DNA of 16,505 bases from a virus. Within the stretch, counting starts at the first letter, position 1; the number at the start of each line of letters is the position of its first letter. Positions 2,424 through 16,505 of the stretch are shown one piece after another. The position numbers and the translations under genes were made by a program. The stretch lies in the UHGV virus genome UHGV-0075529. One strand, 5' to 3'. The notes below the pieces were generated by a model that ran no database searches, had not been told where the DNA came from, and worked only from the letters and a program-made list of their open reading frames with translations.

Positions 2424-2432
2424 AATCTCTCC

Positions 2433-2672: not shown

Positions 2673-3000
2673 TGGCTGACTCCTGCAAAATGAGGTAGAC
2701 GATTGCCACAGCGCGAAGCGGGTTCCGGTGAGTGGCGCTGATGCCAGATTCGTGCGATGCCTGCCAGACGGACTTGCCTGACGGAGCGAGCCCGATTCGA
2801 TGCTTCTTCATTGCCGGGTAAAGCTCTTCGGCGCGCCGCAGCGGGAAATAACCAGTGTTCTGTACCGTGTTAAACCAATTCCACGACAAATTGGCGCCGG
2901 AATTCTCGTGTGGATGAATGGTGGCGCTGTACTTTGGCTTTAGGAAATAGGCCAGCCTGACGCTAATCTCCCCATCACTCAGCTTGCTGTAATCCATCAC
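2635..3000 (-). CDS. Hypothetical phage protein, 121 aa
   Basis: ORF whose ATG (3000-2998) overlaps the stop of the upstream gene (ATGA junction). Confidence 0.55.
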   Translation of the reverse strand: MMDYSKLSDGEISVRLAYFLKPKYSATIHPHENSGANLSWNWFNTVQNTGYFPLRRAEELYPAMKKHRIGLAPSGKSVWQASHESGISATHRNPLRAVAIVYLILQESANVQANPARPDIR

Positions 3001-3221
3001 TTTTCATCCTCCAAATCATCCACTGCATCCATCACGTCAGCCCCGCGAATCATCTCGAACGCCCGGCAAGCCATCTCAAAACACAGCCGCTCATGTGGGT
3101 GGGGAGACTTCCAGTATTCGAACCCATCGCGATGCGAATAGCCCTGCATCGCGTAAAACTCCCCGGCAAGCTCTATCGCGGCATCTACCAGTTCGCGGTT
3201 GGTCATCACCTTTCCCATCAC
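2997..3221 (-). CDS. Hypothetical phage protein, 74 aa
   Basis: ORF with ATGA overlap to the TraR-like gene stop. Confidence 0.55.
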   Translation of the reverse strand: MMGKVMTNRELVDAAIELAGEFYAMQGYSHRDGFEYWKSPHPHERLCFEMACRAFEMIRGADVMDAVDDLEDEK

Positions 3222-3436
3222 ATCCCCCTCTGCTTATTCCGAAATTCCATCTCACCCTGGCAATCAACGCACATCGTGCAGCCCGGATACGCTTTCCGGC
3301 GAGCCTCCGGCAGTGGCTCGCAACATTCCTCACAGTGCGTTGCCGATACCGCATCACGGTTAATCCGGTGAGCACTTAACGCAGCATTACGCTGCAACTC
3401 TTCGACGGCTGATGCGTCGTCTGCAAAATCTGCCAT
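3218..3436 (-). CDS. TraR/DksA-family C4 zinc-finger protein
   Basis: 72 aa with CEECCEPLPEARRKAYPGCTMCVDCQ (CxxC-N17-CxxC), the signature of TraR/DksA proteins; SD AGGGAG upstream. Confidence 0.75.
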   Translation of the reverse strand: MADFADDASAVEELQRNAALSAHRINRDAVSATHCEECCEPLPEARRKAYPGCTMCVDCQGEMEFRNKQRGM

Positions 3437-3490
3437 GGTCAGTGCTCCCTGAACTGTTCATTGATGCGGCTGACGGCAAACGCCAGCAAT

Positions 3491-3536
3491 AAAAAAGGCC
3501 GCATTAGCGACCCGGTGATTTGTGCTGTCATGCGGC
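3491..3536 (-). terminator. Possible weak intrinsic terminator or attenuator (minus strand) between the 203-aa gene and the TraR-like gene
   Basis: 7-bp stem GCCGCAT (3498-3504) / ATGCGGC (3530-3536) with a long ~25-nt loop, followed on the minus strand by TTTTTT (plus A-run 3491-3496); the stop of the 203-aa gene sits in the stem. Confidence 0.3.
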
Positions 3537-4139
3537 GCGACCCGCCATTATTTCGGCCTTCTGCTCATCATCAAGGATGTCGTCAGATATAATCGCCACA
3601 CGGTTGCTCGCTGCCCATGAGACAGGCTCACTTTCTCGGATCGCCTTGTTCAGTGCATCAGCGGCATCAAGAACTGCTTGCGGAAGTGAGTAACAATCAC
3701 CGCCATCAGGAATTATTTCTTCGCAATGCTGCTCAACGTCGAAATATGGCGGGTAATTTGGTTCGCAGATCATCAGTTGGAGTTCGCCTGGCAGCACTGA
3801 ATTGTCCAGGCAGTAGTCAGCCAGCGAATCAAGGTCAAAGAAATACTGATCGCCATCGAAGAGAACGAGTGGCTCGCCCGCCCAGACTGCCCGCTCCATC
3901 TCGGAAAACTTTGTCTGGCGACTTTCTCGGTGACATTCTTCGCAGTAACCATGGGGGCTATGGATTGGGTGCTCTTCTGGTTTGTTTTTGCACTTCTGGT
4001 GCGTCGCGCCACACCACCGGGCCATGCGCTCGTCATTGCCCCAGAAGCGCCCGCCACGGTCTACCCACCCGGTCAAAGTCTGGATGCTGGCTGCTTCATC
4101 GCTGTCCATCATTACAATCTTTTCAGTTTTCATGCTCAT
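3528..4139 (-). CDS. Hypothetical phage protein, 203 aa, Cys/His-rich centre and acidic C-terminus
   Basis: Long ORF with ATGA overlap to the upstream gene; motif WCGATHQKCKNKPEEHPIHSPHGYCEECH suggests metal binding; no family recognised. Confidence 0.65.
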   Translation of the reverse strand: MSMKTEKIVMMDSDEAASIQTLTGWVDRGGRFWGNDERMARWCGATHQKCKNKPEEHPIHSPHGYCEECHRESRQTKFSEMERAVWAGEPLVLFDGDQYFFDLDSLADYCLDNSVLPGELQLMICEPNYPPYFDVEQHCEEIIPDGGDCYSLPQAVLDAADALNKAIRESEPVSWAASNRVAIISDDILDDEQKAEIMAGRAA

Positions 4140-4363
4140 GACTCCACTCCGTAGCGCCCATTCAGGCGACCAATTTCGCTGTTAAATTTGATAAGGCTGA
4201 TGCCTAGAGGCTCGACGATTTGGTGATATTTTCGGAGGATAGGCGGGACGACTTTATTCCAGTTCGGCTTGGGCTTTGTGCGCATCGCCGCTTTCAGTTC
4301 GTCACTGCATCGCCGGGCCTGAGAGTGCAAAGCATTCTCCTGTTCGGTGGTCATTCGCTTCAT
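4136..4363 (-). CDS. Hypothetical phage protein, 75 aa
   Basis: ORF with ATGA overlaps at both ends (Dam stop and 203-aa start). Confidence 0.55.
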   Translation of the reverse strand: MKRMTTEQENALHSQARRCSDELKAAMRTKPKPNWNKVVPPILRKYHQIVEPLGISLIKFNSEIGRLNGRYGVES

Positions 4364-4911
4364 GCTGCCTCCCGCCGGGCGATAAGTTTCGCTCCGAAAG
4401 TCATTAATACGTCGCGCTCCACGAAATTGGACTCGCAGTGTGTCCGAGGGAATGGCCGCCAGATGAGCAACATACTCCCTTTATTATTTCCCGATACCGG
4501 CTTACCGGTGACCGGGTTGATGAATTCCAGCCGCCCGGCAGTGATGAATCGAACCTCGCTCGCCGTCTCGATAGCCTCACGGAACCAGCCGACGGAAGTA
4601 TCAGCCGGAACCAGCATGACGGTGCCGATCTGATTCTTGCTCTCCGCTGCGGCTTTCTTCACGAATGGCGTGATGTCGCTGTAAGGTGGGTTGAGCCACG
4701 CATAGCCTGGAATGGTGAGGTAATCGGCCCACGGAGTTTCCAGCGTATTCTGCTCTGCGGTGATGAACTTGCGGCAGAGCGCGTTATGCGGCGCTGCTGC
4801 GGCGTCCAGTTGAAAGCAGAACTCTGCATCCAGCGCGGCAAATAGAGCCGGTGGTGTGCGCCATAAATCACGCTGATCTGCTGGCGTGTTACTTCCGGTG
4901 TAATCGGTCAT
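4360..4911 (-). CDS. dam: Phage-type DNA N6-adenine methyltransferase (Dam family)
   Basis: 183 aa with the catalytic NPPY motif (AWLNPPYSD) and overall phage Dam architecture. Confidence 0.8.
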   Translation of the reverse strand: MTDYTGSNTPADQRDLWRTPPALFAALDAEFCFQLDAAAAPHNALCRKFITAEQNTLETPWADYLTIPGYAWLNPPYSDITPFVKKAAAESKNQIGTVMLVPADTSVGWFREAIETASEVRFITAGRLEFINPVTGKPVSGNNKGSMLLIWRPFPRTHCESNFVERDVLMTFGAKLIARREAA

Positions 4912-5066
4912 GCCGCCTCCCTCTTATTGTTTAGCTCTTCCGCCAAGCGCTGGGCCTTGAGTGGGTTCTGGATGACCATGCCGCCGGGAACCACCCACCC
5001 GCGGCGTAAGTTCGAATAGACGAGCGTCACCGATCCCACGCTGATGTTGTCGTGTGCATTTTTCAT
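4908..5066 (-). CDS. Small hypothetical protein, 52 aa (not in the ORF track)
   Basis: Hand translation of the minus strand gives [52 protein letters not shown]; ATG overlaps the exo stop and its TGA overlaps the dam ATG; SD GGAGAG 8 nt upstream. The listed 84-aa ORF here is in another frame. Confidence 0.45.
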
Positions 5067-5743
5067 CGCCATTGCTCTCCGAAGGTGAAGCCAATCTCTG
5101 CCAGCGCCTCGTCCATCTTTTCGATGAACTCCGGCACCATCTCGTCGAAGTCGGCCATGTATTTTTCATCCCGCTCAACCACGACGTAATGCAGCCCCTC
5201 GCGCTTCATGCGAGGGTCGTAGTTGGCAAAGAACCAGGCTGGATTTTTGTTTACCCACATGCTGTATTGCACCTGGGCCATGTAGTCCGCTTTGATGGCA
5301 TCGAAGCCGCCGAGCCGGAACTTCATGAAGTCTCGGGAGGTGAACGGGCATTTCAGCTCGAGGCCAAATCCGTTACTGCACAGGCCGTCTGGTGAACAGG
5401 CGGTGCGCATGGTTTCATCGCGAAAGAGGATCGGTGATTCGATGACGCTCACTCCGGTCGTGAACTCAAACAGGGTGCGTGCGTCCTCTTCGTACTGCTT
5501 GCCCCAGGCAAGCGCCTTTGCATTCACCTCCGGCGCTACACCGGTGCATACCTCAGCGAGGAGGGTGTGGAAGTAGGACATCTTCATGCAAGTCCATTTG
5601 GTGCCGCTGCGCGGTTTTGAAATGACGTTATGAACCTCAGATGCGGTGATAACACCGAGGCGAAGTCGATGCCACTCCTCATCACCCTGTTCGATTCTGG
5701 TCACATCAATGCCGGTTCGCGCCAGGATGATTTCTGGTGTCAT
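5063..5743 (-). CDS. exo: Lambda-type 5'-3' exonuclease (Red-alpha / YqaJ family)
   Basis: 226 aa, near-collinear with lambda Exo as recalled ([14 protein letters not shown]..., [32 protein letters not shown]-terminal FGEQWR). Confidence 0.9.
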
Positions 5744-6669
5744 GCGGCAGCCCTCTGCTTGAGGAAACCAAGAGCCTTGACGGCCTCTATCTCAGTGAGA
5801 TCGCCAGACTCCAGAATGTCGCGCTTGAAGATACGGCGGCACAGAGGGAGAAGGTCCTCATCCCATGTTTTGTTCATGGCGATCAGGAGGTCGTTTATCT
5901 CTTTCAGCGTGTCGAGGCTGGCCGGGGTAATATCGCGCTCTGGCTGGCGCTCTGCAGCAAAGTTGATACCCTCCTCGCCCTCAGTGTTGACGTGGTCGAT
6001 AGCGGCATCCAGACGTTCGCGTCGCGGCCAGTATTTGGTTGCCTGCTTCACGACTGTCTTGAGGATCATCTGCTCTTCGTCCGTCACCCATGGACACTTC
6101 TTGCTGCTGTCCTGCTTGTACTTCTTCCAGGCTTCCGAACGGTCACGGATCGCGAAGATATCCGCTATGCGCATGGTATGGGTGAGATAGTCGCCGTCGT
6201 CAGTTTTAACCACGACATACGCCCCAACAATCTCACCGCGCTGCTCTGCGGTGTCGAAGTCGTTGTAGATGTGAATGGGTGGCTTATCTAGCCCCTCACG
6301 GCGGAACTGGTCGTTCTTCCGCACGATTGCAGACTGGCACCACTTAATTGCACCAGATTGCTGGGCGATGTGCATCAACCCCATGTAGCTAATATCGAGG
6401 CAGATAGCACCTTTTCGCGGCACAAGATAAGCAAGTTTCTGCGCCGGGTTCAGCGATATCCCGATTCCTGAAATATTCATCAGGGCGCTACGGGTGCTAG
6501 TCGGGTTGGAGAGAGCGATTTTCGCCAGGTAGTCATTGTTGGCGAAGATCTGCATGGCGAACTCAGATTCGCGCTTGAATTGAATGGACGGTTCGGCGCA
6601 AACCTGCTCGAACTCCGCCTTGAGTGGGTTAATCAGGTTGAATACCTGATCTGTAAGCAGGCCAGCCAT
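5740..6669 (-). CDS. recT: RecT-family single-strand annealing protein
   Basis: 309 aa directly upstream of exo with ATGA coupling; sequence pattern consistent with the RecT family; SD AGGAGGA upstream. Confidence 0.75.
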
Positions 6670-6693
6670 CAGCAGTCCTCCTGTTATTGAAAG

Positions 6694-6978
6694 TTAAAAC
6701 GGGCAGCCGGTGCGGTGTTCCCAGTCGTGCTCTGCCTGGGCGTAGGCCACTGCCGAAACGAAGTCGTTGTATGCCTCGGCAGCTTTATCGCTGCGAAGTC
6801 CTTCGTATGGGCTGGCGTCGATCGGCACGGAGAAGTGGAAGAGACCGGACGGCTCTTTTGGCATCATGTCGATGATTTCCTGCGCCCGGTCGTCGATCCA
6901 CTTCTCTTTCTCGTCGGTGAGCTGCTGCTCAGCCCAGCGTCGATCTTCGATGCGGTCGTAAGTGAGGAATGCGTTCAT
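6694..6978 (-). CDS. gam: Gam-like host-nuclease (RecBCD) inhibitor
   Basis: 94 aa; N-terminus MNAFLTYDRIEDRRWAEQQL resembles lambda GamS [22 protein letters not shown] as recalled; sits just upstream of the annealing protein as in lambda. Confidence 0.55.
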   Translation of the reverse strand: MNAFLTYDRIEDRRWAEQQLTDEKEKWIDDRAQEIIDMMPKEPSGLFHFSVPIDASPYEGLRSDKAAEAYNDFVSAVAYAQAEHDWEHRTGCPF

Positions 6979-6985
6979 GGTTGCC

Positions 6986-7957
6986 TCAGTAATGAATTTT
7001 CGCGCAGGGGATTAGGTCGTCTTTAAGTGCGGTGAGCACTTCGATAGCCTGTTCGCGGGTTAAGCTGGTGTGGCTGGTGAGCGCGTTAACGATGTTGGTG
7101 CCGACCGTCTTGCGGTGCTTCACGTCAGCTTCGCGCTTTGCCTGTTCATCGGCGAGGCGCTTCTCTTCGGCCAGGCGAGCATCTTCGGCCTGTTTTGCCT
7201 TGTGGCGCTCAGCTTCCACTGCCGCAGCTTTTTCTCTTTCCGCCCGGGCTTCTGCTTCCTTCTTCTCGCGTGTCGCACGCTGTTCCGCTTCAATGCGCTG
7301 GCGTTCCGCCAGCTCTGCACGCGCTTTCTCTTCAGCTTCACGGCGCGCTGCGGCTTCAATTTCTGCTTTGTGCTTCGCTTCGGCATCGCGTCGGGCTTGC
7401 TCTGCCGCTTCACTCTTAATGCGCTCTTCATGCTCACGTTGAGCCTGTTCCGCCAGGCGGCGCTGCTCTTCGCGGTCCCGGTCAAAATCCTTATTCATCA
7501 GCAGAGCCATTTCGTGGTCCGCTTCGAACTGAATAGCCCGCTGCAAATCGATGCTCTCGTTCATCACCAGTGCTTCGGCGTGCATCGCGTTCATGGCTTC
7601 TTCAGCCTTAATACGTTCCTGCTCGGCTTCCCATTCGGTAAGTGGGCGCCGTACTTCATCCTTCAGCGCGTCCAGCCTCTCACGCACAATGCGGCGGCTT
7701 TCGTCGATCTGCTTCGGCAGGGCTTTAAGCTCGGCAACCAGATCCTTGCCGGCGTTGTCGATATAGGTTTTGGAGCGGGCAACCTTATGCGCCATGGATG
7801 CGATCGCGTCGCGGCCTTTGCGGGTCGACACATCCGGTACCAGGCTGCGAGCTTCTTTCTCGATCGCCTCAATAATAGGGTCGAGCTGCTCTTTGGTGGT
7901 GAATACCGCCATTGCGTTCTGTTTCTCAATGACGACTAAATCCGTTACTTCGCTCAT
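6986..7957 (-). CDS. Low-complexity coiled-coil protein, 323 aa (Ala/Glu/Arg/Lys-rich centre)
   Basis: Uninterrupted ORF with strong SD (AGGAGA); central ~150 aa is a charged repeat (EAEQRATREKKEAEARAEREKAAAVEAERHKAKQ...) between non-repetitive termini. Confidence 0.7.
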   Translation of the reverse strand: MSEVTDLVVIEKQNAMAVFTTKEQLDPIIEAIEKEARSLVPDVSTRKGRDAIASMAHKVARSKTYIDNAGKDLVAELKALPKQIDESRRIVRERLDALKDEVRRPLTEWEAEQERIKAEEAMNAMHAEALVMNESIDLQRAIQFEADHEMALLMNKDFDRDREEQRRLAEQAQREHEERIKSEAAEQARRDAEAKHKAEIEAAARREAEEKARAELAERQRIEAEQRATREKKEAEARAEREKAAAVEAERHKAKQAEDARLAEEKRLADEQAKREADVKHRKTVGTNIVNALTSHTSLTREQAIEVLTALKDDLIPCAKIHY

Positions 7958-8025
7958 GGTTTCTCCTGAAATTTGGATGTGCAGATGCCGCCCGCATAAG
8001 CCAGGCCGATCGGTTGAATAGGGGG

Positions 8026-8166
8026 TTAGGCTGTTTTTCTATGCCACGGATAACCGATGGCGACCTTCATTTCGTCGTAGGCTGCCATCCACATGGCGCC
8101 ATCACCGATAAACAGGGCAATGGCTGCTTTACTCTGCGCTGCGCGCAGCAGGTGATGATTGATCAT
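8026..8166 (-). CDS. kil: Kil-like small peptide, 46 aa (candidate cell-division inhibitor; not in the ORF track)
   Basis: Hand translation: MINHHLLRAAQSKAAIALFIGDGAMWMAAYDEMKVAIGYPWHRKTA; ATG overlaps the stop of the upstream small ORF; the ALFIGDGAMW segment resembles lambda Kil as I recall it (unverified). Confidence 0.4.
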   Translation of the reverse strand: MINHHLLRAAQSKAAIALFIGDGAMWMAAYDEMKVAIGYPWHRKTA

Positions 8167-8321
8167 GCCTTCACCTCAACCTGTTTCATGAGGCCAGCGA
8201 TATTCATCTGTTGGCGGTTCAGCGTCAGCTTGTCGCGCGGTGCCGATACCGACGTCAACTGCCACTCGTTATCGTTGAGTTTTTTGGCGGTGTACTGCTT
8301 GCCGTTGTGGGTGACTGTCAT
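8163..8321 (-). CDS. Small hypothetical protein, 52 aa (not in the ORF track)
   Basis: Hand translation: MTVTHNGKQYTAKKLNDNEWQLTSVSAPRDKLTLNRQQMNIAGLMKQVEVKA; strong SD GGAGGAATC directly upstream; ATGA overlaps at both ends. Confidence 0.45.
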   Translation of the reverse strand: MTVTHNGKQYTAKKLNDNEWQLTSVSAPRDKLTLNRQQMNIAGLMKQVEVKA

Positions 8322-8557
8322 GATTCCTCCCGAGCGCGGAGCATTGCGTCAGCTATCTGGTACGCTTCGGTTGCCGTGCGGTCATCGCTACACAACCAGT
8401 CAGGATTGGCTAATCGACCCTGCATAGCCTTGGCCGCGAAGTAATCGCGTAGGGTCATGCCGCCAGAGCTGACTTCGAAACCATGTAAGTGACCAACTTC
8501 GTCGCGCTCCACGATAGAATCACACGGGAAAGCGCGCCCTCCAGTTTTGTTGCTCAT
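8318..8557 (-). CDS. Hypothetical phage protein, 79 aa
   Basis: ORF with SD AAGAGGG upstream of ATG 8557; first gene after the leftward terminator. Confidence 0.6.
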   Translation of the reverse strand: MSNKTGGRAFPCDSIVERDEVGHLHGFEVSSGGMTLRDYFAAKAMQGRLANPDWLCSDDRTATEAYQIADAMLRAREES

Positions 8558-8691
8558 AAACCCTCTTGGCCTTATCGCGGCGAACGGAACGGTTAATACA
8601 AGACTTCAACGCATTTATTCAGTGTTTCAATGGGCGGTGGATGGCCGCCGGTTGTCATAACTTGAGCCACTCGTAAATGACCCCAGGTATG

Positions 8692-8714
8692 AAAAAAGCC
8701 GCTGGTTAGGCGGC
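8692..8714 (-). terminator. Intrinsic terminator (minus strand), tL1-like position downstream of the pL-proximal genes
   Basis: Stem GCCGC (8698-8702) / GCGGC (8710-8714), loop TGGTTAG, followed on the minus strand by TTTTTT (plus A-run 8692-8697). Confidence 0.65.
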
Positions 8715-8873
8715 TCTGTTAATCCATTCTCGTGCGTTGCGTCGGCACATCCATGCCAGCTTTACCCAAAGGTCATGAAACCCATCACCACGCACTGATG
8801 CTCGACATTTTTTGCGGTACTGCCTGTAATCTTCACTGCACTCGGCAGCATATTTATCAGTTGTGCTTTGCAT
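8706..8873 (-). CDS. Small hypothetical Cys-containing protein, 55 aa (not in the ORF track)
   Basis: Hand translation: MQSTTDKYAAECSEDYRQYRKKCRASVRGDGFHDLWVKLAWMCRRNAREWINRAA; SD GAGGGT upstream; its stop lies in the loop of the 8692-8714 terminator. Confidence 0.4.
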   Translation of the reverse strand: MQSTTDKYAAECSEDYRQYRKKCRASVRGDGFHDLWVKLAWMCRRNAREWINRAA

Positions 8874-8930
8874 GCTCTTACCCTCTGTCGTTACCCGCTG
8901 ATGCGGGAGAAATTCTTTATCTATCAGCTG

Positions 8931-9143
8931 CTACAACTCATCACGAATCTGTGAGAGTGTGCTGATCGCCTGGTAATGACCGCGACGCTGCTCTTCTGTT
9001 TTGAACGCGCGCATATCGTCTTTTATCGATGCGATTGCCTTATTCAGAACTTCCACTTGCGCTTCTTTAATCGCCTGTTTGCGTGGCTTCTGACGCTTCT
9101 TAGGAAGGTCTCTTAAACACGCCGGAATGTATGTCTGAGTCAT
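8931..9143 (-). CDS. Basic 70-aa protein, first gene downstream of pL (N position; antiterminator identity unproven)
   Basis: ORF with SD AAGAGGA; Lys/Arg-rich stretch LPKKRQKPRKQAIKEAQ near the N-terminus; position matches lambda N. Confidence 0.5.
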   Translation of the reverse strand: MTQTYIPACLRDLPKKRQKPRKQAIKEAQVEVLNKAIASIKDDMRAFKTEEQRRGHYQAISTLSQIRDEL

Positions 9144-9348
9144 AAAAAATCCTCTTGTGATTCAGCACAGCCCACTCAGCTTCGAATGGACTGGAATAAA
9201 TCTTTTTTTCGCTTTGCCATAATTGCCGCTCTCCCTGAGCCCGCCTATGGTCCGACGCATGGTTTACTGTCGCGCCGTTCGACTGACCGAATCTCCACTT
9301 CGCCGCTGGCTAACTTCGCTCAGCTGTCGATGTTTCGTTTCGATGGGG

Positions 9349-9430
9349 TAAATTTAGCGTGATGCTAAATTATGCGCAATAGCAAAATGCTAAATTGTTG
9401 AATGGTTTTATTTAGCGTATTGATTAATAA
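9349..9430 (-). promoter_or_regulatory. OL operator triplet with pL promoter
   Basis: 17-bp sites TTTAGC-N5-GCTAAA at 9353-9369 (perfect), 9378-9394 and 9411-9427 (imperfect); on the minus strand -35 TTGCGC (9379-9374), 17-bp spacer, -10 TAAATT (9356-9351). Confidence 0.6.
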
Positions 9431-9466
9431 GCGATTAAAAATTTACAGCGAAGGAATTCGGGACGT

Positions 9467-9490
9467 AAAAAAGCCCGCGCGATGGCGGGC
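9467..9490 (-). terminator. Intrinsic terminator downstream of cI (minus strand)
   Basis: Stem GCCCGC (9473-9478) / GCGGGC (9485-9490), loop GCGATG, followed on the minus strand by TTTTTT (plus A-run 9467-9472). Confidence 0.6.
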
Positions 9491-9510
9491 TTGAGGGGTT
9501 TTGCGTGAGG

Positions 9511-10188
9511 TTATGGGATGTTTAGTATTTTGGCATCAACCACAACGCCGATGATTTTGCAGTTTCCATTAATTTCTAGCATTGGATATGCGGGGTTAAG
9601 GGGCTTTAGGAAGCGTCTGCCGGCATCGATTACAAGCTTCTTAAAGGTCGCTTCGTTATCGCCTTCTAGCTTCGCGACAACCAGCTTTCCGTTGCGCGGC
9701 TCGACTTCAGGATCAACAAGTATCGCTGCTCCCTCGGGTATGCTCAGTCCAGCCGGGGAGGTCATAGAATCCCCTTTAACGTCCAGCCAGAATGAATCTT
9801 CTGAGCAGTCAACAGTCGTGTCATACCAGCGATCTATCGCTCTTCGGTGATAAGGTTCTACAGCTTCCATCCATTGCCCCGCGCTTACCCAGCTGATTAC
9901 AGGATAACTTCCTTTTGTCTCGTTCAGTCCTCGAAATGCAACGTTCGAAGGTTCTTCACTGGCGTGTAAAACATCCATCCAGCCAAAAGGCAGATCAAGC
10001 GCAGTTTCAATTTTGCGAGCCATCTTATCGCCGATATTGCGATGAGGGTTTGGTCCCAGTAGCTGGCTAAGCGCAGCCGGACTTGTCTCGATGAGCTCGG
10101 CAAACTGCGCTTTGGTCATTCCAGACTCGTGCTGACGCTTCTCGTACAGCGCTTCCAGGTTGGCTTTTCTGATTTCTTTATTTTCCAT
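9511..10188 (-). CDS. cI: cI-type prophage repressor (N-terminal HTH, C-terminal S24 LexA-like autopeptidase)
   Basis: Start taken at ATG 10188 (MENKEIRKANLEA...); C-terminal domain has the catalytic Ser in GDSM, a downstream Lys, and an Ala-Gly candidate cleavage site (SWVSAGQW). The ORF track runs to 10305 across the operators. Confidence 0.88.
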   Translation of the reverse strand: MENKEIRKANLEALYEKRQHESGMTKAQFAELIETSPAALSQLLGPNPHRNIGDKMARKIETALDLPFGWMDVLHASEEPSNVAFRGLNETKGSYPVISWVSAGQWMEAVEPYHRRAIDRWYDTTVDCSEDSFWLDVKGDSMTSPAGLSIPEGAAILVDPEVEPRNGKLVVAKLEGDNEATFKKLVIDAGRRFLKPLNPAYPMLEINGNCKIIGVVVDAKILNIP

Positions 10189-10304
10189 ACCTGCATTGTT
10201 ACTGCTTTTAGCAAAATGATAAATATGCAAATTGCTAAATGATGCTTGCGTAGTATTTAGCATAACGCTAAACTCCAAATCAAACGACTCACCCGGAGAC
10301 ACCA
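10189..10304. promoter_or_regulatory. OR operator triplet with divergent PRM/PR promoters
   Basis: 17-bp sites at 10207-10223 (TTTAGC-AAAAT-GATAAA), 10223-10239 (weak) and 10256-10272 (perfect TTTAGC-ATAAC-GCTAAA); PR candidate -35 TTGCGT (10246-10251), 17-bp spacer, -10 TAAACT (10269-10274). Confidence 0.7.
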
Positions 10305-10538
10305 ATGAGCACTGAACTACACCGCTGGCGCAAGGCCGCCACTACCGACGAATGGGCGCAGCTCGCAAAGTTGGCTAACACGACGCCAGGTTACCTGGAC
10401 CAGATCGCCTACGGAAATCGCCGGGCATCTCCAGAAATGGCATCTGCTATCGAGAAAGGCACGAAGAATTTTCACCGCCAGGCTCCGGTCCTAAAAGAAA
10501 GCCTGGTATTCGCATCGCCGCGTGATACTGCGGCCTAA
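10305..10538 (+). CDS. cro: Cro-like / YdaS-family HTH DNA-binding protein
   Basis: 77-aa ORF divergent from cI across the operator region; SD GGAGA 7 nt upstream; HTH-like segment EWAQLAKLANTTPGYLDQIAYGNR. Confidence 0.65.
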   Translation: MSTELHRWRKAATTDEWAQLAKLANTTPGYLDQIAYGNRRASPEMASAIEKGTKNFHRQAPVLKESLVFASPRDTAA

Positions 10539-10555
10539 CCACGAAAGGGAAAGCA

Positions 10556-11122
10556 ATGCATTCACTTGCGTATCAACAGAGTACCGGACTTGAACAACGT
10601 CCGTTGATTTCGATTTATCAAAGTGTTCCGCGTAATAACCGTAAGCTAACTCGAATACGGGAGGCAGTTAAGGCCTGGCAAAAAGCTACGCCGGGCCAGT
10701 CTCAGGTTCACATTTCTCAGCTGGTTGCGAAAGAGTGGCTGGCGCGCGGCGGGAAGGGGTTGTTACTGGCAGGTTCTGAACACAACACGAAGCAGAACTT
10801 CTTCCGGATGATTAACGATCCGGGCCCGAAGAACGACAAGGGGTTGATGCTACTGATCCCCGTCATTATCGACGTGATGGCGCGGGATAACGAGAAAGTG
10901 GCGAGAGAGTTCGGTCTGGTCGCAAAGACTGAGGCCGAACTGATAGCCGAGGCCATGAAAGAGTGCACTGAAGCGCATCAGGCGAAGTTACTTGGTCAGC
11001 CGATACAACGCCTTGAGAAAGAGGTGAGAGAAGCTGCTGAAGCACTTCTGCGCTTTCTGCCCACTGAATCAATCGCCGCGGTGGTGACAAGTCTGGCCGC
11101 TATGGCGCCGGGAGTTATGTGA
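10556..11122 (+). CDS. YdaT-like protein in the CII position
   Basis: 188 aa immediately after the cro-like gene; segment KEWLARGGKGLLLAGSEHNTKQNFFRMIN resembles Rac YdaT as recalled. Confidence 0.55.
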   Translation: MHSLAYQQSTGLEQRPLISIYQSVPRNNRKLTRIREAVKAWQKATPGQSQVHISQLVAKEWLARGGKGLLLAGSEHNTKQNFFRMINDPGPKNDKGLMLLIPVIIDVMARDNEKVAREFGLVAKTEAELIAEAMKECTEAHQAKLLGQPIQRLEKEVREAAEALLRFLPTESIAAVVTSLAAMAPGVM

Positions 11123-11211
11123 TGGGAAGTATCAAAAACGGCGAAAGCCAGTCTGCTCGAACAGAACTGGCCTTCAGATGCAAATCGTGTGCACTCATTG
11201 CAGGAGGAATA

Positions 11212-11358
11212 ATGGCAAAAAATCCACGCTATTACCATACCGCTGTACATAAAAACATAACCCGCGACCGCTTCATCCGCTCGGTTAACCCGATTGTGGC
11301 AGAGAAGATGCGCGCCATCCTGGAAGAACTGAAACGTAAGGAGAGTGGCCGTGGGTAA
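11212..11358 (+). CDS. Small hypothetical protein, 48 aa (or 78 aa from ATG 11122)
   Basis: Strong SD AGGAGG 5-6 nt upstream of ATG 11212 (MAKNPRYYHTAVHKNITRDRF...); the ORF track extends to 11119 overlapping the upstream stop. Confidence 0.45.
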   Translation: MAKNPRYYHTAVHKNITRDRFIRSVNPIVAEKMRAILEELKRKESGRG

Positions 11359-12250
11359 CGTATCCAATTTAGCCGAAGCCAGAGAGGCCAGAAGGCTCCA
11401 GAAACCGCGCACGAATGACGGTAAGGGGTTTGCCTTGCTGCACCGTAAAATTATGGATGTGCCGTTCTACAAGGACGCTGAGGCGGCTCATTTATGGGTT
11501 CACCTGCTCCTGCGCGCTAATCATGAACAGACACTGGTATCGACTGATGTCGGCGATGTGATCTGCGAGCGCGGAGAGTTCATTACCGGGCGAAACACGC
11601 TGGCAATGGAAACGGGTTTGACCGCTGATCGCGTTAAATCACTGCTCCGTAAATTCCAGAACCTGGGCATGATCACCACCAAATCGAACAACCGTTTTAC
11701 TGTTCTAAAAGTGGTCAAATATGACGAATATCAGTCAAATTTTTGTCCAGCCGATGTCCAGCCAGTGTCCAGCGCAAACGCAGCTATATCAATGCCTGCG
11801 GAGGCGGAGTGTCCAGCCGATGTCCAGCCAGTGTCCACAGATAACAATATATTAAATAACTTACTACCTAACGGTAGTAAGTATGTCGCAAATGACCAGA
11901 AACCCGCTGAAGAGAAAAAGTCCCGTTTGTCATGCGATGAAGTATGGCAATGCCTGAAAGACGAACTGCCTGAAGCCCGGGGATGGAGATGCCTCACTGA
12001 TGAGCGACGCAATCTGATCCGCACCTTCTGGGGTAAGGCTAACAAAATTGCCCGCAACCTGGACGGCAAGCCGATGGATATGGACGGTTTCAGAAGCTAT
12101 CTGCGCTACATCGCTCAGAACTGCCGCTGGATGCTTGAAGACCGACCAGACCAGAAATCCGGGAAGACCTGGCGCCGCATGAAATTCGATAAGTTCCTGA
12201 CCGAAAAGCTCTACATCGAAGTGCGCGAAGGGGATCGTGATGACCGCTGA
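11345..12250 (+). CDS. Replication initiator / replisome organiser (O-like) with the origin inside the gene
   Basis: 301 aa with N-terminal DNA-binding-like region, a central linker encoded by the iterons (CPADVQPVS twice), and a conserved phage C-terminal domain; sits directly upstream of the helicase. Confidence 0.7.
   Translation: MAVGNVSNLAEAREARRLQKPRTNDGKGFALLHRKIMDVPFYKDAEAAHLWVHLLLRANHEQTLVSTDVGDVICERGEFITGRNTLAMETGLTADRVKSLLRKFQNLGMITTKSNNRFTVLKVVKYDEYQSNFCPADVQPVSSANAAISMPAEAECPADVQPVSTDNNILNNLLPNGSKYVANDQKPAEEKKSRLSCDEVWQCLKDELPEARGWRCLTDERRNLIRTFWGKANKIARNLDGKPMDMDGFRSYLRYIAQNCRWMLEDRPDQKSGKTWRRMKFDKFLTEKLYIEVREGDRDDR
11744..11882. repeat. Candidate replication origin: six phased iterons, AT-rich tract and a 24-bp palindrome
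   Basis: TGTCCAGCC-type 9-mers at 11744, 11755, 11766, 11810, 11821 and 11832 (11-bp spacing; 28-bp perfect direct repeat 11744-11771 = 11810-11837); AT-rich ATAACAATATATTAAATAAC; palindrome ACTTACTACC-TAAC-GGTAGTAAGT (11859-11882). Confidence 0.6.
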
Positions 12251-13673
12251 TTTCATGGCTGTACCACAAAACCTCGAAGCAGAGCAGAGCGTTATCGGTG
12301 GCCTGCTGCTGGATGATGACAACAGCGAGCGAGTCCAGAAGGTTCTGGCGATGCTCAAGCCTGAGTCGTTCTACAGCCGACCTCACCAGCTGATCTTTGC
12401 CGAGATGCGCCAGATGTTCCGCGACAACAAGCCAGTCGATGGTCTGACATTGTTCGACGCGCTCGAAGGCAAAGGGCTCGCTGAGCAGGTGGGTGGCTTT
12501 GCTTACCTTGCGGAGATCGCCAAGAACACTCCCAGCGCTGCAAACATCGTAGCTTACGCAGCATCAGTCCGGGAAGCCGCAATGGAGCGCTACGGTATCA
12601 ACCGCCTGACCGAAGCTACTGAGCTGCTGTATTCCCGTAACGGCATGAGCGCTACGCAGAAGTACGAGGCCATTCAGGGTATTTTCACCCAGCTCGCAGA
12701 CCATTCAAAAACCGGTAGTCGCCGTGGGTTGCGGTCGTTCGGCGAGGTTATGGATGACTGGGTAGCAGATCTGGAGAAACGCTTTGACCCTTCAGGCGAA
12801 CAGCGCGGCATGAGCACCGGCATCCCGTCACTCGACCGGCTGCTGGCGCCGAAAGGTCTGGTTAAAGGCTCTCTGTTCGTGATTGGCGCAAGGCCAAAGA
12901 TGGGCAAGACAACCCTGTACGGTCAGATGGCGATCAACTGCGCGGTTCGTGAGAAAAAGCCAGCGCTGATGTTCAGCCTCGAAATGCCGGGCGACCAGAT
13001 CCTCGAAAAACTGGTTGGTCAGAAGTCTGGAGTTAACCCGAGCATTTTTTACATGCCAGCCACGGATGACGCCGATGACCAGTACCAGGGCGATTACGAC
13101 GGCGACTTTAAGAAGGCGATCGCCACCGCCGGGCGATTGAGTGAAATCGACATGCTGTACATCGACGATACTCCTGGCCTGTCACTGGCGCACATCGTTA
13201 GCGAAAGCCGCCGAATCAAGCGCGAGAAGGGCTGCGTAGGAATGATTTTGGTTGACTACCTGACTCTGATGACCGCCGAAAAAGCCGACCGTAATGACCT
13301 TGCCTACGGGATGATCACCAAAGGGTTGAAGAACCTCGCTAAAGAGCTTGGCTGCGTCGTCGTGCTGCTGACCCAGCTCAACCGCGAACTGGAGAAGCGA
13401 GTGAATAAACGCCCGTTACCGAGCGATTCCCGCGACACAGGACAGATTGAGCAGGACTGCGACTACTGGGTTGGTATCCACCGGGAAGGTGCTTTCGATG
13501 ATAGCGTGCCGCCGGGAGAAACCGAGTTAATCCTGCGACTCAATCGCCACGGCAGTACCGGAACGGTTTATTGCAATCAGATCAACGGGGCAATTTACGA
13601 CACAGACCAGCAGGCCGCCGCCGCAGAACGACGCGGGCGTGAGCAGCAGCCGAAAAAGAAAGGGGGATTCTGA
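12240..13673 (+). CDS. Replicative DNA helicase, DnaB family (phage-encoded)
   Basis: DnaB N-terminal signature AVPQNLEAEQSVIGGLLLD...FYSRPHQLIF...GGFAYLAEIAKNTPSAANI and Walker A GARPKMGKTT; ATG at 12240 with SD AAGGGGA. Confidence 0.9.
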   Translation: MTADFMAVPQNLEAEQSVIGGLLLDDDNSERVQKVLAMLKPESFYSRPHQLIFAEMRQMFRDNKPVDGLTLFDALEGKGLAEQVGGFAYLAEIAKNTPSAANIVAYAASVREAAMERYGINRLTEATELLYSRNGMSATQKYEAIQGIFTQLADHSKTGSRRGLRSFGEVMDDWVADLEKRFDPSGEQRGMSTGIPSLDRLLAPKGLVKGSLFVIGARPKMGKTTLYGQMAINCAVREKKPALMFSLEMPGDQILEKLVGQKSGVNPSIFYMPATDDADDQYQGDYDGDFKKAIATAGRLSEIDMLYIDDTPGLSLAHIVSESRRIKREKGCVGMILVDYLTLMTAEKADRNDLAYGMITKGLKNLAKELGCVVVLLTQLNRELEKRVNKRPLPSDSRDTGQIEQDCDYWVGIHREGAFDDSVPPGETELILRLNRHGSTGTVYCNQINGAIYDTDQQAAAAERRGREQQPKKKGGF

Positions 13674-14017
13674 TGACCATAACAATCCGCGGGCAGATTC
13701 TTGCAGCCCTGCGTAACAACCCGGGCCTGAACAGTGCTCGTATTGCCAGCATGATCGGCATGACCACCAAAAAGATTTCCGGCCCGTTAAGTACGTTGTT
13801 TGCAGACGGCCTGATCGAGTTCGAAGGCAAGCACGGACAGCGGCTTTATCGGCTGACCGATTACGGCATGAAATACGCACCAGAAACAATCCCGGCTATG
13901 CCGAAGGGAAATTCGAAGCTGGTGCAGCGTACAGAGGCAAACGTGATCTGCCAGGAGTGCCGCAACAGCGCGGCGATGAGAAGGGTATTGATGGTTTGGG
14001 GGAGGGTAGGGGTATGA
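13673..14017 (+). CDS. Putative winged-helix DNA-binding protein, 114 aa
   Basis: ORF whose ATG overlaps the helicase stop (TGATG); N-terminal region has an HTH-like pattern (ILAALRNNPGLNSARIASMIGMTTKKISGPLSTL). Confidence 0.55.
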   Translation: MTITIRGQILAALRNNPGLNSARIASMIGMTTKKISGPLSTLFADGLIEFEGKHGQRLYRLTDYGMKYAPETIPAMPKGNSKLVQRTEANVICQECRNSAAMRRVLMVWGRVGV

Positions 14018-14211
14018 AAATCGAAGATATCAAAAACGTTGCGGTGTTCTTCAATATGAACGGCAAGACAGTAGCGTTACGAATGGATGCTGAGCAGAAG
14101 CGGATCGTCGCATTAATGGCGCTTAACACGGCTGATGCTCGGGCAGAACTGATTGAAGTGCCGCACATGACTTTACCAGCAGACCCAGCCATGGAGGAGG
14201 CCGCCCAATGA
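14014..14211 (+). CDS. Hypothetical phage protein, 65 aa
   Basis: ATG 14014 overlaps the upstream stop (ATGA) and follows SD GGAGGG; the ORF track starts at 13957. Confidence 0.5.
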   Translation: MKIEDIKNVAVFFNMNGKTVALRMDAEQKRIVALMALNTADARAELIEVPHMTLPADPAMEEAAQ

Positions 14212-14597
14212 GCAACATCGACAAACGTGGATTACGTGAAGCAGCGGAGAAGGCGACGAAATGCCGGTGGGCTGTTGAGTTCGACGATGAGATTTACTCC
14301 ACTGACGGCGTGAACCATGAGCAAATAGCCATGGTATTCAGTGAAAACGAAGCGCGTGATGCTGCATTTATCGCCGCAGCCAACCCCGCCACCGTGCTGG
14401 CGCTGCTGGATGAGCTGGAAGCCGCAGAGAAGCGAATCGCTGAACTGGAAGCGAAGCTCGATAGCGCAGATAAATTGCAAGATAGCGCATTTCGTCATGG
14501 TCTTCAGCATGGCTTCAGTTTTGGTCAAACGGATAATCAGGCTGGATTTGAAGAGTGCTTATCTGCATATGGAGCGCGGGGTAAAGATAATGGCTAA
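14208..14597 (+). CDS. Ead/Ea22-like family protein
   Basis: 129 aa; N-terminal KRGLREAAEKATK and ATVLALLDELEAAEKRIAELEAKL are typical of Ead/Ea22-like proteins as recalled; ATGA overlap to the upstream gene. Confidence 0.65.
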   Translation: MSNIDKRGLREAAEKATKCRWAVEFDDEIYSTDGVNHEQIAMVFSENEARDAAFIAAANPATVLALLDELEAAEKRIAELEAKLDSADKLQDSAFRHGLQHGFSFGQTDNQAGFEECLSAYGARGKDNG

Positions 14598-14790
14598 TTC
14601 ATTACTTGAAACATGCAATGACTGGCAAATTCTTCGCGCAGAAATATTGGCTCGAAATCCAAATATGGCCATGATACTTCAAAAGCTCGACATCATGATT
14701 GAGCATTCCGTTAGGGCGGCAATTGAAATATCGCATCGTGTTGACTGGGATTTTAGTGAAGCAGAGCGTAAAGCTAAGGCGGTGAATTAA
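14590..14790 (+). CDS. Hypothetical phage protein, 66 aa
   Basis: ATG 14590 overlaps the end of the upstream gene by 8 nt; the ORF track extends to 14341, overlapping the Ead-like gene. Confidence 0.45.
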   Translation: MANSLLETCNDWQILRAEILARNPNMAMILQKLDIMIEHSVRAAIEISHRVDWDFSEAERKAKAVN

Positions 14791-15587
14791 TGGAACTTTC
14801 ACGGGATAAGATTAAAGAAATAATCAATGACGATTGGCTTTTGATGGATGATTGCGAAGGAAATAAAAACTGTGACGTTGTCAAAGAGATGGCGCGTATA
14901 GCGCTGGCATCGCTCGAAGCGGAGCCTGCCATTCACCGGTGGCGTCGTGTGACCTCTGAGCCATACGGCCCCTATCCTTGGCATTATGGTGATTTTATCG
15001 GCTTCTCAAAGCCCGTTGATGGGATTGAGGATGAGTATTTTTACTCCGCCCCGCCAGAGCCAGCCAATGCCGAAACCGTAGCCTGGCTGTGGTCACACAG
15101 GAAACACCCGAGCGAAGTCACGCTTGTTCGCCCTGAAGATGATGAGAGAGCGGAGGGTGCTCACTGGTCTGGCTGGAGTTGTCAGGCGCTTTATGCAGCA
15201 CCGCCAGTTCCGGTATCTGTGCCCACATTCGAGAAATGGTGTGAGTTGACTGAGCAGAAACCTGTCGGATGGGTGCGTGATGCTATGAAAGAAGCGTATG
15301 ACGGATGCCGCGACGCCATGCTTCAGGGTGCCGAAAAAGCCGAGTCGCCCACCACCATGCAGACCGCGCCAGCCCTAGATTCTTCGCCAAAAATTTCCGA
15401 GTCGCCCGTCAGCAACTCTCCGGTGATTCCGGATGGTTGGGTGCTGGTTCCTAAGGAGCCAACTCCAGAAATGCGTGAGGCGTACCATCAGGCGCAGGAA
15501 GAGTGTGAAGATGGCGGTAGATTATGGAGCCCAGACCACCAATGGAAGGCCATGATCGCAGCAGCACCGCAGCAGGAGGCGAAGTGA
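14790..15587 (+). CDS. Hypothetical phage protein, 265 aa, with an internally repeated motif
   Basis: ATG overlaps the upstream stop (TAATG); internal repeat GWVRDAMKEAYDGCRDAM versus GWVLVPKEPTPEMREAYHQAQ; no catalytic motif recognised. Confidence 0.65.
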   Translation: MELSRDKIKEIINDDWLLMDDCEGNKNCDVVKEMARIALASLEAEPAIHRWRRVTSEPYGPYPWHYGDFIGFSKPVDGIEDEYFYSAPPEPANAETVAWLWSHRKHPSEVTLVRPEDDERAEGAHWSGWSCQALYAAPPVPVSVPTFEKWCELTEQKPVGWVRDAMKEAYDGCRDAMLQGAEKAESPTTMQTAPALDSSPKISESPVSNSPVIPDGWVLVPKEPTPEMREAYHQAQEECEDGGRLWSPDHQWKAMIAAAPQQEAK

Positions 15588-15638
15588 TTATGTCGTGACA
15601 GCATAATTGCGATGTCAACGATAAGCAGAGGTTTGAAA

Positions 15639-15833
15639 ATGAAATCACAATCACCAGTGCAGCATGAAGTTAACATCGACGGCAAAGAGTATGTTGTCAC
15701 AGTAGTCCAAACCGGCAAGTCAACGTGGAGGGCATGGGGAGATTCCTGGGGGCGCCATATAGTCGAAACAGGTTCTAGCGAACATAGCGCGCTTTCTCAT
15801 TGGAAAGCAAAAGCTTTAGTTATGAATGGGTAG
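15639..15833 (+). CDS. Hypothetical phage protein, 64 aa
   Basis: ATG 15639 preceded by SD GAGG (the ORF track starts at 15612); followed by the 15857-15882 terminator. Confidence 0.5.
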   Translation: MKSQSPVQHEVNIDGKEYVVTVVQTGKSTWRAWGDSWGRHIVETGSSEHSALSHWKAKALVMNG

Positions 15834-15856
15834 CGCGGAAACTTTGAAGGTATAAT

Positions 15857-15882
15857 CCCCTCAAATAATCGAGGGGGTTTTT
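15857..15882 (+). terminator. Intrinsic terminator (plus strand) whose 3' stem half doubles as the SD of the next gene
   Basis: Stem CCCCTC (15857-15862) / GAGGGG (15871-15876), loop AAATAATC, then TTTTT (15878-15882) abutting ATG 15883. Confidence 0.6.
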
Positions 15883-16455
15883 ATGTCTGGTTGGGATAAC
15901 GGTATAGATGCAGTTTCTGCGATTGCAGCTATCGCATATGGAAACTCCGTCTATGTAGAATTTGACCGCGAAGCACAATCACTTGATGCAGCTATCGCAT
16001 CTGCGGTAGCAACTTATTTAGCATGGCGATCCTCAGAAGCTAGCAGGGCCACATCCGAAAAAGCTTTGCAGTTGCAAGGAAAGCAGTATTTGTACGAGAC
16101 ATTAAAAGCTTGCGCTGAGAGAGCGAATTCATACTCAAAAGGAAAGAAAGGGGCTGACTGGAGCTTTCATGACGCAGCCAATATTGTTCGATGTTTGAAC
16201 ATGGCAATGGGGAGCATAATAAATTACTCAGATACCAACAATCAGGATGCAATGAAAGGTCTGAAGCAATTCTTTATTAGCCAATTAAACATGGAGCTTT
16301 TTGAAGAGCTCAACTATGAGGTTGGGCCTGATGCCTTCTTTCACGGAGAGGAGCTAACCAGCATGACGAGCGATATTTACTCGCAGTGGTTAAACATTAT
16401 TTCATTCTTTAACCTCATGATTGTCACAGATGATGACCTCGCCGATGAAACATAG
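15883..16455 (+). CDS. Hypothetical protein, 190 aa, in a visibly AT-richer segment (candidate moron / accessory gene)
   Basis: Clean ORF starting right after a terminator; lower GC by eye than the replication genes; acidic C-terminus (TDDDLADET); no motif recognised. Confidence 0.65.
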   Translation: MSGWDNGIDAVSAIAAIAYGNSVYVEFDREAQSLDAAIASAVATYLAWRSSEASRATSEKALQLQGKQYLYETLKACAERANSYSKGKKGADWSFHDAANIVRCLNMAMGSIINYSDTNNQDAMKGLKQFFISQLNMELFEELNYEVGPDAFFHGEELTSMTSDIYSQWLNIISFFNLMIVTDDDLADET

Positions 16456-16505
16456 CTTGATTGATTTTCCATAATCAACCCGCCATAATCATGTCATCGG
16501 AGCCT

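Follow-up and report, generated by a model that had tools for sequence, protein, structure and literature searches.

The window, that is, the whole stretch of 16,505 nucleotides of viral DNA considered here, carries on its plus strand the gene of a phage DnaB-family replicative helicase (12240 to 13673, 477 residues), which follows the gene of an O-like replication initiator (11351 to 12250, 299 residues). The helicase frame runs uninterrupted from an ATG at 12240 to a TGA at 13671 to 13673, with a GTG at 12237 as an alternative start, whereas the initiator begins with a GTG at 11351 in a frame that is open from another GTG at 11345. Since the TGA of the initiator (12248 to 12250) lies inside the helicase frame, the two genes overlap by 11 nucleotides (ATGACCGCTGA), and a Shine-Dalgarno-like sequence, GAAGGGGA (12227 to 12234), ends 5 nucleotides upstream of the helicase ATG. 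The overlap suggests that translation of the initiator and of the helicase may be coupled. The annotations of the phages HK022, L, CobraSix and Chronis give genes of equal size with this overlap, and both traits recur in eight further bacterial loci, the overlap being seen in L005 to L010 and L019 to L021. In 107 phage records a match at E ≤ 1e-100 spans 80% or more of the helicase, and an O- or gp18-type gene is annotated next to it in every one that was examined. The original prediction had placed an O-like initiator directly upstream of the helicase, with overlapping stop and start, and this is what is found at 12240 to 12250.

The helicase is composed of an N-terminal domain (residues 1–118), a linker (119–189), a RecA-like ATPase domain (190–445) and a basic/acidic tail (446–477). 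Scans against Pfam, PHROG and NCBIfam detect the DnaB N-terminal domain (PF00772, residues 9–112, E = 2.6e-31, 108.1 bits with a cut-off of 23) and the DnaB_C domain (PF03796, residues 190–445, E = 6.9e-58, 196.5 bits with a cut-off of 27), as well as PHROG 19, “DnaB-like replicative helicase” (E = 7.8e-132). The match to TIGR03600, “phage replicative helicase, DnaB family”, extends over profile positions 1 to 420 of 421 and reaches 550.8 bits (E = 2.1e-165), above the curated cut-off of 498.65 bits; with both Pfam domains and this family above cut-off, the prediction of a phage-encoded DnaB-family helicase is borne out. The score against the cellular DnaB equivalog, TIGR00665, stays below its curated cut-off (316 vs. 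385.25 bits), and the protein is therefore not classed as a host-type dnaB orthologue. The exact 477-residue protein turns up in 214 indexed blocks of a public assembly collection, so the reading frame is not a chance one, and all six of the exact-helicase loci displayed have an O-like gene upstream with the identical overlap.

All six catalytic motifs are intact, namely Walker A (GARPKMGKTT, 216–225), the catalytic glutamate E248 in FSLEM, Walker B with D339 in ILVDYL, the sensor glutamine Q379 (H3) in LTQLNR, H4 (RDTGQIEQDCD, 398–408) and the arginine finger R436. Each of them aligns with both E. coli DnaB and P22 gp12, and their conservation means that the refuting condition named with the prediction, helicase motifs inactive on alignment, does not apply. 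The domain comparison that had been proposed gives identities of 33% to P22 gp12 and 39% to the host protein. E. coli DnaB, which is the best match among solved structures (E = 8e-83), has the same two-domain architecture and the same motifs, and the identity of its K-12 sequence to the phage helicase is distributed unevenly, with 51% in the N-terminal domain, 41% in the RecA-like domain and 20% in the linker. A stretch of the N-terminal domain is near-identical in the two proteins (GGFAYLAEIAKNTPSAANIVAYA in the window, GGFAYLAELSKNTPSAANISAYA in E. coli DnaB), while the phage protein differs in an acidic insertion of about 10 residues (around 278–287) and in its C-terminal tail. Given its homology to solved DnaB hexamers, the phage protein would be expected to form a hexamer and to unwind DNA in the 5′–3′ direction in an ATP-dependent way.

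The initiator consists of a winged-helix, origin-binding N-domain (residues ~40–128), a disordered linker (~129–191) and a helical C-domain (~192–295). PHROG 345, “replication initiation O-like”, covers its full length (E = 3.3e-69), and 1679 homologues were found by search, with identities of 98% to the CobraSix homologue, 96% to that of Chronis and 49% to phage L gp18. No usable named family was returned by the Pfam (a sub-threshold MksE match only), NCBIfam and PDB sequence searches. Residues 16–132 align with residues 17–123 of lambda O (hhalign probability 94.8%, E = 5.5e-8), whereas past residue 132 neither BLASTP nor profile alignment finds similarity to lambda O, including its P-binding C-terminus. 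The sole match of the C-domain is the C-terminus of P22 gp18 (26% over 117 residues, E = 6e-4), with which it has invariant motifs in common; to judge from these alignments, only the N-domain resembles O, while the C-domain belongs with that of P22 gp18. The AlphaFold2 model, built from a shallow alignment of 17 sequences (mean pLDDT 65, pTM 0.36), contains two folded domains (pLDDT ~75–88) joined by a linker with a pLDDT of ~30. Its N-domain adopts a winged-helix fold, for which Foldseek returns only weak wHTH matches in the PDB (E ~0.01); nothing in the PDB, known loaders included, matches the model at E ≤ 0.001.

The disordered linker is the part of the initiator that is encoded by a putative origin of replication. 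Six 11-bp repeats of the form TGTCCAGCnnn, the last of which is degenerate, occupy positions 11744 to 11842 in two clusters (starting at 11744, 11755 and 11766, and at 11810, 11821 and 11832), with helical phasing and 66 bp between the starts of the two clusters. The core TGTCCAGC is present in five exact copies, when 0.61 are expected, and none of 200 shuffles reaches five. The repeats are followed at 11843 to 11882 by an A+T-rich stretch, up to 11858, and a palindrome with a perfect 10-bp stem, ACTTACTACC TAAC GGTAGTAAGT (11859 to 11882), which was also picked up by the terminator scan as a stem-loop. The A+T-rich stretch and the palindrome would be the side on which the origin is expected to unwind. 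In lambda, ori is laid out as iterons, an A+T-rich region and an inverted repeat, and the region from 11744 to 11882 runs parallel to this.

The same arrangement of three plus three 11-bp iterons is found at the matching place within the initiator genes of HK022/L-type modules. The repeats of phage L, with which the region from 11744 to 11882 aligns, are annotated as rep_origin and have been described as the likely ori (PMC8022706). The iteron sequence itself is different: the window has TGTCCAGCC where L has TGTCCAACG and HK022 has TTACCAGCA. The initiator N-domain, too, is just 56–65% identical to those of the HK022/L-type modules, and these differences indicate a different origin specificity. 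Iteron type tracks N-domain type in natural mosaics, as in P0012, where an HK022-type N-domain is accompanied by HK022-type repeats. Judged by its repeats, the putative origin adds to the HK022/L-type module family a third iteron specificity (TGTCCAGCC), one that is common to the phages and prophages of Enterobacter, Klebsiella and Citrobacter found here. Among published phages, the nearest that share it are Enterobacter phage CobraSix and Klebsiella phage Chronis; CobraSix, which forms plaques, has the module at 96.5% nucleotide identity, and its gp57 is 98.7% identical to the helicase.

On the left, a small open reading frame of 79 residues on the same strand (11119 to 11358) overlaps the initiator start by 8 nucleotides, in the same way as P22 orf48 precedes gene 18. 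The frame is homologous to P22 orf48 and HK620 HkaW (DUF2740, Pfam E = 5e-4), and the “tail protein” label of its match in PHROG 1913 (E = 8.6e-26) is probably a mislabel. In other prophages the mosaic junctions on this side lie near 11110–11126, and the frame marks the left boundary of the mobile replication unit. On the right, the stop codon of the helicase overlaps the ATG of the next gene (TGATG), which encodes a Ren-like winged-helix protein of 114 residues (13673 to 14017, plus strand) that matches PHROG 142, “Ren-like exclusion protein” (E = 8.6e-29), and is 27% identical to lambda Ren (E = 2e-9). The right mosaic junction is at 13676 or at 14021, and the Ren-like gene often, but not always, accompanies the module, with other genes in its place in L007, L021, HK022 and L; the protein is probably outside the replication machinery. 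No gene for a primase or for a loader resembling lambda P, DnaC or DnaI is found among the open reading frames of the window, which ends at 16505, including the downstream frames (13957 to 16455) and the left arm. Such a gene could still be situated beyond 16505, though longer related loci have none as far as the lysis genes. A promoter scan from 9300 to 14300 detects no consensus sigma-70 site, and terminator-like matches inside genes are at chance level (8 vs. 5.7 expected); a tRNA scan found none.

The closest relatives of the pair are HK022 O/P, Sf6 gp43/gp44, HK620 O/P, gp18/gp12 of ST64T and L, and O/P of VT2-Sakai (Sp5), all of which have the same gene order, a 299-residue initiator (49–52% identical to the one described here), a 477- or 478-residue helicase (84–87% identical; ~86% for HK022 P, Sf6 gp44 and ST64T/L gp12) and the 11-nucleotide overlap. 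HK022 P is a member of the DnaB family (PMC2669165). Because the arrangement has been described in P22, HK022, Sf6, ST64T and L, the module is real but ordinary: going by its sequence, the pair is the classical initiator–helicase replication module of a lambda-like prophage, already known and with nothing new in its arrangement.

Lambda, whose O/P pair is an initiator–helicase loader module, has its O and P genes at the same position in the early right operon, after cro and cII-like genes and with ren next, and its O protein has a homologous N-domain with the iterons likewise inside the gene. Lambda P, however, is a 233-residue loader that captures host DnaB, whereas the second gene of the window encodes the helicase itself. 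The contrast with lambda drawn in the original prediction stands, since the order of O-like, helicase and ren-like genes mirrors O-P-ren with the helicase replacing P. In P22, as in the window, an iteron-bearing initiator gene (18) is followed by an overlapping gene for a DnaB-type helicase (12), and the helicase motifs of gp12 are conserved. Direct orthology to P22 gp12 was nevertheless rejected in favor of HK022, Sf6 and L as close relatives, as the helicases are 33% identical and the initiator N-domains ~15%. P22 gp12 belongs to a different NCBIfam subfamily, being outside TIGR03600 (305 bits vs. the cut-off of 498.65), and P22 has four repeats of ~20 bp (PMC8022706) rather than six of 11 bp.

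Initiator–helicase (IH) and IL types are treated as standard classes of replication modules in a passage of PMC11131426 (citing Weigel & Seitz, 2006). Two marks of the IH type are present, an initiator gene followed immediately by a helicase gene, with no P-, DnaC- or DnaI-like frame in the window, and iterons with an A+T-rich region within the initiator gene, the putative origin. The locus is thus very probably an IH-type module, in which the phage's own helicase would be recruited by its own initiator at an internal origin. Once a cI-like repressor is relieved, rightward transcription would express initiator and helicase in fixed proportion, coupled by the gene overlap. The N-domain of the initiator would bind the iterons and open the adjoining A+T-rich DNA, and its C-domain, which is gp18-like and unlike the P-binding C-terminus of lambda O, would recruit the helicase directly to the opened origin, where it would work with host DnaG primase and the Pol III holoenzyme. 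Replication would need no host DnaB and probably no DnaC, a view already taken of P22 gene 12. The use of DnaG would be in line with the helicase's N-terminal, primase-binding domain being its part most like host DnaB (51%), and P22 gp12 works with E. coli DnaG according to Wickner (1984), as cited in PMC8022706.

The C-domain of the initiator (~192–295) might itself be a loader of DnaB-type ring helicases, fused to the origin-binding protein and unrelated to DnaC/DnaI, lambda P or DciA, that would open the ring of the phage helicase at the origin or build it there. This is a tentative proposal, to which a probability of well under one half is given. It would fit a domain that P22 gp18 shares and lambda O lacks, and for which the PDB holds no relative in sequence or fold. 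Among the loci compared, the type of C-domain does not clearly track the type of helicase: in L019 a 51%-identical C-domain stands beside a 94–99%-identical helicase, and in Chronis a 98%-identical C-domain stands beside a 52–80%-identical helicase. As the two do not co-vary tightly, the proposed direct contact is without support from covariation.

Independence from host DnaB and DnaC may reasonably be inferred by extension from the biochemistry of P22 gp12 (Wickner, 1984, as cited in PMC8022706), a transfer that crosses subfamilies because gp12 falls below the TIGR03600 cut-off; in the literature searched, no published test of it was found for the HK022/L-type helicase subfamily. Host DnaB is a slightly closer relative of the helicase than P22 gp12 is, so that by sequence the phage protein could use host DnaC, with which E. 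coli DnaB works and of which the window encodes no equivalent. The phage helicase might then replace host DnaB and yet be loaded by DnaC, making replication independent of DnaB but not of host loading. The identity to DnaB (39% overall, 41% in the RecA-like domain), the lack of a dedicated loader gene in the window, and a C-domain that neither co-varies with the helicase nor has a structural relative among known loaders all point in this direction. However, the helices that DnaC and lambda P contact belong to the DnaB linker region, and it is here that the phage protein is only 20% identical (119–189). P22, moreover, is regarded as independent of host dnaB and dnaC in its replication, and the conservation of the initiator C-domain with P22 gp18, unlike lambda O, fits a dedicated helicase partner, so loading by DnaC is considered rather unlikely.

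Far less probable is that the upstream protein is a DnaD-like helicase loader or remodeller instead of an origin-binding initiator, with the origin elsewhere. Its N-terminal part does match “DnaD-like helicase loader” PHROGs (phrog_2514, E = 2.6e-23; phrog_186, E = 8.7e-15), and the Pfam, NCBIfam and PDB sequence searches give it no named family, but its best PHROG is the O-like one over the full length, its N-domain aligns with that of lambda O by profile, the gene contains the iterons, as in lambda, P22 and L, and N-domain and iteron types co-vary in mosaics (P0012). Least credible of all is a decayed or non-replicative helicase, carried as a passenger of a defective prophage and, for example, poisoning host DnaB through mixed hexamers. 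The window is a prophage region that may be incomplete, and mixed hexamers are known for the pair of P1 Ban and DnaB. That pair is much closer, though, while the identity to host DnaB is just 39% here; every catalytic motif is intact, the identical protein occurs in the 214 collection blocks, a 98.7%-identical helicase is present in an isolated plaque-forming phage, and initiator and ori invariably accompany the helicase.

With the IH-type reading preferred, the wider interest of the locus is how an initiator without a separate loader puts a closed-ring, DnaB-type helicase on DNA, for which no structural solution in this class of modules was found in the literature searched; in a module that is otherwise textbook, the C-domain as a putative fused loader is the only part whose mechanism is open. 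The chief value of the analysis is one of annotation, in that the replication module and the probable origin of the prophage have been identified. For the phage, a helicase of its own may lessen the dependence on host DnaB and DnaC and the exposure to interference by the host or by rival phages at this step, and the idea that such self-supply lowers host dependence is long established for P22.

The ORF at 12240-13673 (+), with 477 open codons, encodes a DnaB-family helicase, exactly where and as the original prediction had it: both of its Pfam domains lie far over threshold (PF00772, 108 bits; PF03796, 196 bits), it matches PHROG 19, "DnaB-like replicative helicase" (E = 7.8e-132), and its closest solved structure is E. 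coli DnaB (E = 8e-83). The start codon, ATG 12240, is preceded by GAAGGGGA at 12227-12234. The gene directly follows that of the initiator, whose stop codon (TGA 12248-12250) gives an 11-nt overlap with the helicase frame, and the predicted overlap of stop and start is thus observed. At the other end, the sequence TGATG contains both the helicase stop (TGA 13671-13673) and the overlapping ATG of the following gene.

The possibility that the helicase motifs are inactive was examined in an alignment with E. coli K-12 DnaB (NC_000913), P22 gp12, and phage L gp12, in which every catalytic element is intact. Conserved are the Walker A motif (residues 216-225, GARPKMGKTT), the catalytic glutamate E248 within FSLEM, the Walker B aspartate D339 within ILVDYL, the sensor glutamine Q379 within LTQLNR, the DNA loop and H4 motif (NKRP; RDTGQIEQDCD, 398-408), and the arginine finger R436; therefore, the helicase is not visibly inactivated. 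An acidic stretch of about 10 aa (ADDQYQGDYD, residues ~278-287), inserted between the Walker A and B regions, distinguishes the helicase and its HK022/L-type relatives from E. coli DnaB and P22 gp12, both of which lack it.

The helicase is 39% identical to E. coli DnaB (N-terminal domain 51%, linker 20%, ATPase domain 41%) and 33% identical to P22 gp12, while identity reaches 84-87% with HK022 "P", Sf6 gp44, HK620 P, ST64T/L gp12, and VT2-Sakai P, and 98.7% with gp57 of the Enterobacter phage CobraSix. It passes the NCBIfam model TIGR03600, "phage replicative helicase, DnaB family" (550.8 vs. a cut-off of 498.65 bits), but not the cellular DnaB equivalog TIGR00665 (316 vs. 385.25), and P22 gp12 falls short of the TIGR03600 cut-off. 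By these sequence models, the helicase thus belongs to an already curated phage subfamily, separate from host DnaB and from P22 gp12.

The initiator probably starts at GTG 11351, following the CobraSix annotation, which gives a protein of 299 aa. It is covered over its full length by PHROG 345, "replication initiation O-like" (E = 3.3e-69), and a profile of the initiator and its relatives aligns through residues 16-132 (probability 94.8%) with the domain by which lambda O binds the origin at its N-terminus, with nothing in lambda O matching past residue 132. The AlphaFold2 model consists of a winged helix (~40-128) and a helical domain (~192-295), with a disordered linker between them, and the C-terminal third has weak, motif-rich similarity to the C-terminus of P22 gp18. 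The predicted "O-like" character therefore holds for the N-domain but not for the C-domain, which is gp18-like instead and can be assigned to the kind that precedes helicase genes, not to the lambda P-binding kind.

The initiator gene also contains the putative origin. Two clusters, at 11744-11776 and 11810-11842, each hold three 11-bp repeats (TGTCCAGCnnn), six in all; next come an A+T-rich stretch and a palindrome with a perfect 10-bp stem (11859-11882). Five exact copies of TGTCCAGC are present, compared to 0.61 expected by chance. Phages L and HK022 have an identical iteron layout in the alignment, but their repeat sequences, TGTCCAACG in phage L and TTACCAGCA in HK022, differ from those of the window. 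In natural mosaics, repeat type and initiator N-domain type go together, which fits a reading of the iterons by the N-domain. A 28-nt iteron string is present in species representatives of Enterobacter, Citrobacter, and Izhakiella. The iterons encode the peptide CPADVQPVS, repeated in the disordered linker. Some initiator homologues from Klebsiella and Salmonella (among P0002-P0008) are 277 aa long and lack exactly 22 aa, CPADVQPVSSANAAISMPAEAE; these correspond to 66 nt, the start-to-start spacing of the two clusters (11744-11842), which suggests that the clusters underwent unequal crossing-over, leading to a three-iteron origin.

The window corresponds to the early region of a lambdoid prophage. 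An integrase (742-1932, +) is followed by a Dam-like DNA methyltransferase (4360-4911, −) and by a set of YqaJ/RecE-like exonuclease, RecT, and GamL (5063-6978, −), which takes the place of lambda exo/bet/gam in the left arm. Adjoining the GamL-like gene is a conserved ORF of 323 aa (6986-7957, −; PHROG 1376, no Pfam family), found at the same position in five of six related prophage loci, in a region whose A/T bias between strands is very strong (AT skew −0.33 to −0.37). A cI-like repressor (9511-10305, −) and a cro-like gene (10305-10538, +) precede a YdaT-like protein in the cII position (10556-11122, +), which, at 188 aa, greatly exceeds the 97 aa of lambda CII; it matches PHROG 163, "CII-like" (E = 4.7e-38), and its YdaT_toxin Pfam match, also listed for homologues, is weak (E = 0.013). 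The next small ORF, orf48/HkaW-like (11119-11358, +; DUF2740), is labelled "tail protein" in PHROG 1913 and RefSeq phage records, which is doubtful because its place as the first gene of the replication module is conserved and, as in P22, it shares 8 nt with the start of the initiator gene. After the replication pair (11351-13673, +) come a ren-like gene (13673-14017, +; 27% to lambda Ren), so that the lambda order O-P-ren is mirrored by O-like, helicase, and ren, and an Ead/Ea22-like gene (14208-14597, +). Two downstream ORFs of 265 aa (14790-15587, +) and 190 aa (15883-16455, +) have no Pfam family, hit PHROGs of unknown function alone (phrog_60/28084 and phrog_1779), and show neither a Walker A motif nor resemblance to a loader. 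No P-, DnaC-, or primase-like gene was found among the ORFs of the window.

The initiator-helicase pair is conserved in roughly one hundred phage records and in many prophages; the module occurs at 97-99% nucleotide identity in 19 E. coli genomes, all complete, and window 2240-14926 is 99.96% identical to a contig of assembly GCA_048815935.1. Prophage comparison reveals that the module travels as a unit, with left junctions at ~11110-11126 and right junctions at 13676 or 14021. The initiator is itself mosaic, its N-domain and repeats recombining separately from the C-domain, as seen in the related loci L012 (Klebsiella phage Chronis), L019, and L021. Chronis has 87% DNA identity across the initiator and for ~440 nt into the helicase and is divergent afterwards, the junction (~12679) lying at the border of the helicase N-terminal domain and linker.

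Mechanistically, the initiator would bind the repeats and open the A+T-rich DNA, its C-domain would recruit the phage helicase, and the helicase would then work with host DnaG and Pol III. Primase binding in DnaB proteins resides in the N-terminal domain, the part of the helicase most like host DnaB (51%). For P22 gp12, support of oligonucleotide synthesis by the E. coli primase DnaG has been described (Wickner, 1984, as cited in PMC8022706). Provided that the phage helicase is used, host DnaB would not be needed. Independence from DnaC is less secure; P22 is a precedent for replication without DnaC, and the dissimilar linker (20%) and the gp18-like C-domain point the same way. Covariation of initiator C-domain type with helicase sequence was sought and none was found, and the initiator model has no significant structural match.

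The pairing of helicase and initiator is confirmed, the original prediction's reading of it is supported, and it has precedents. Phage replication modules are already classed as initiator-helicase-loader or initiator-helicase (PMC11131426, citing Weigel & Seitz, 2006), the "P" proteins of HK022 and Sp5 (VT2-Sakai) belong to the DnaB family (PMC2669165), and divergent P22-type modules have been described in L-like Salmonella phages (PMC10307801; PMC8022706). The module of the window is a further copy of an already known initiator-helicase module, and CobraSix, a published phage, has essentially the same genes. Its only particular feature is its iteron specificity, common to CobraSix and Chronis.
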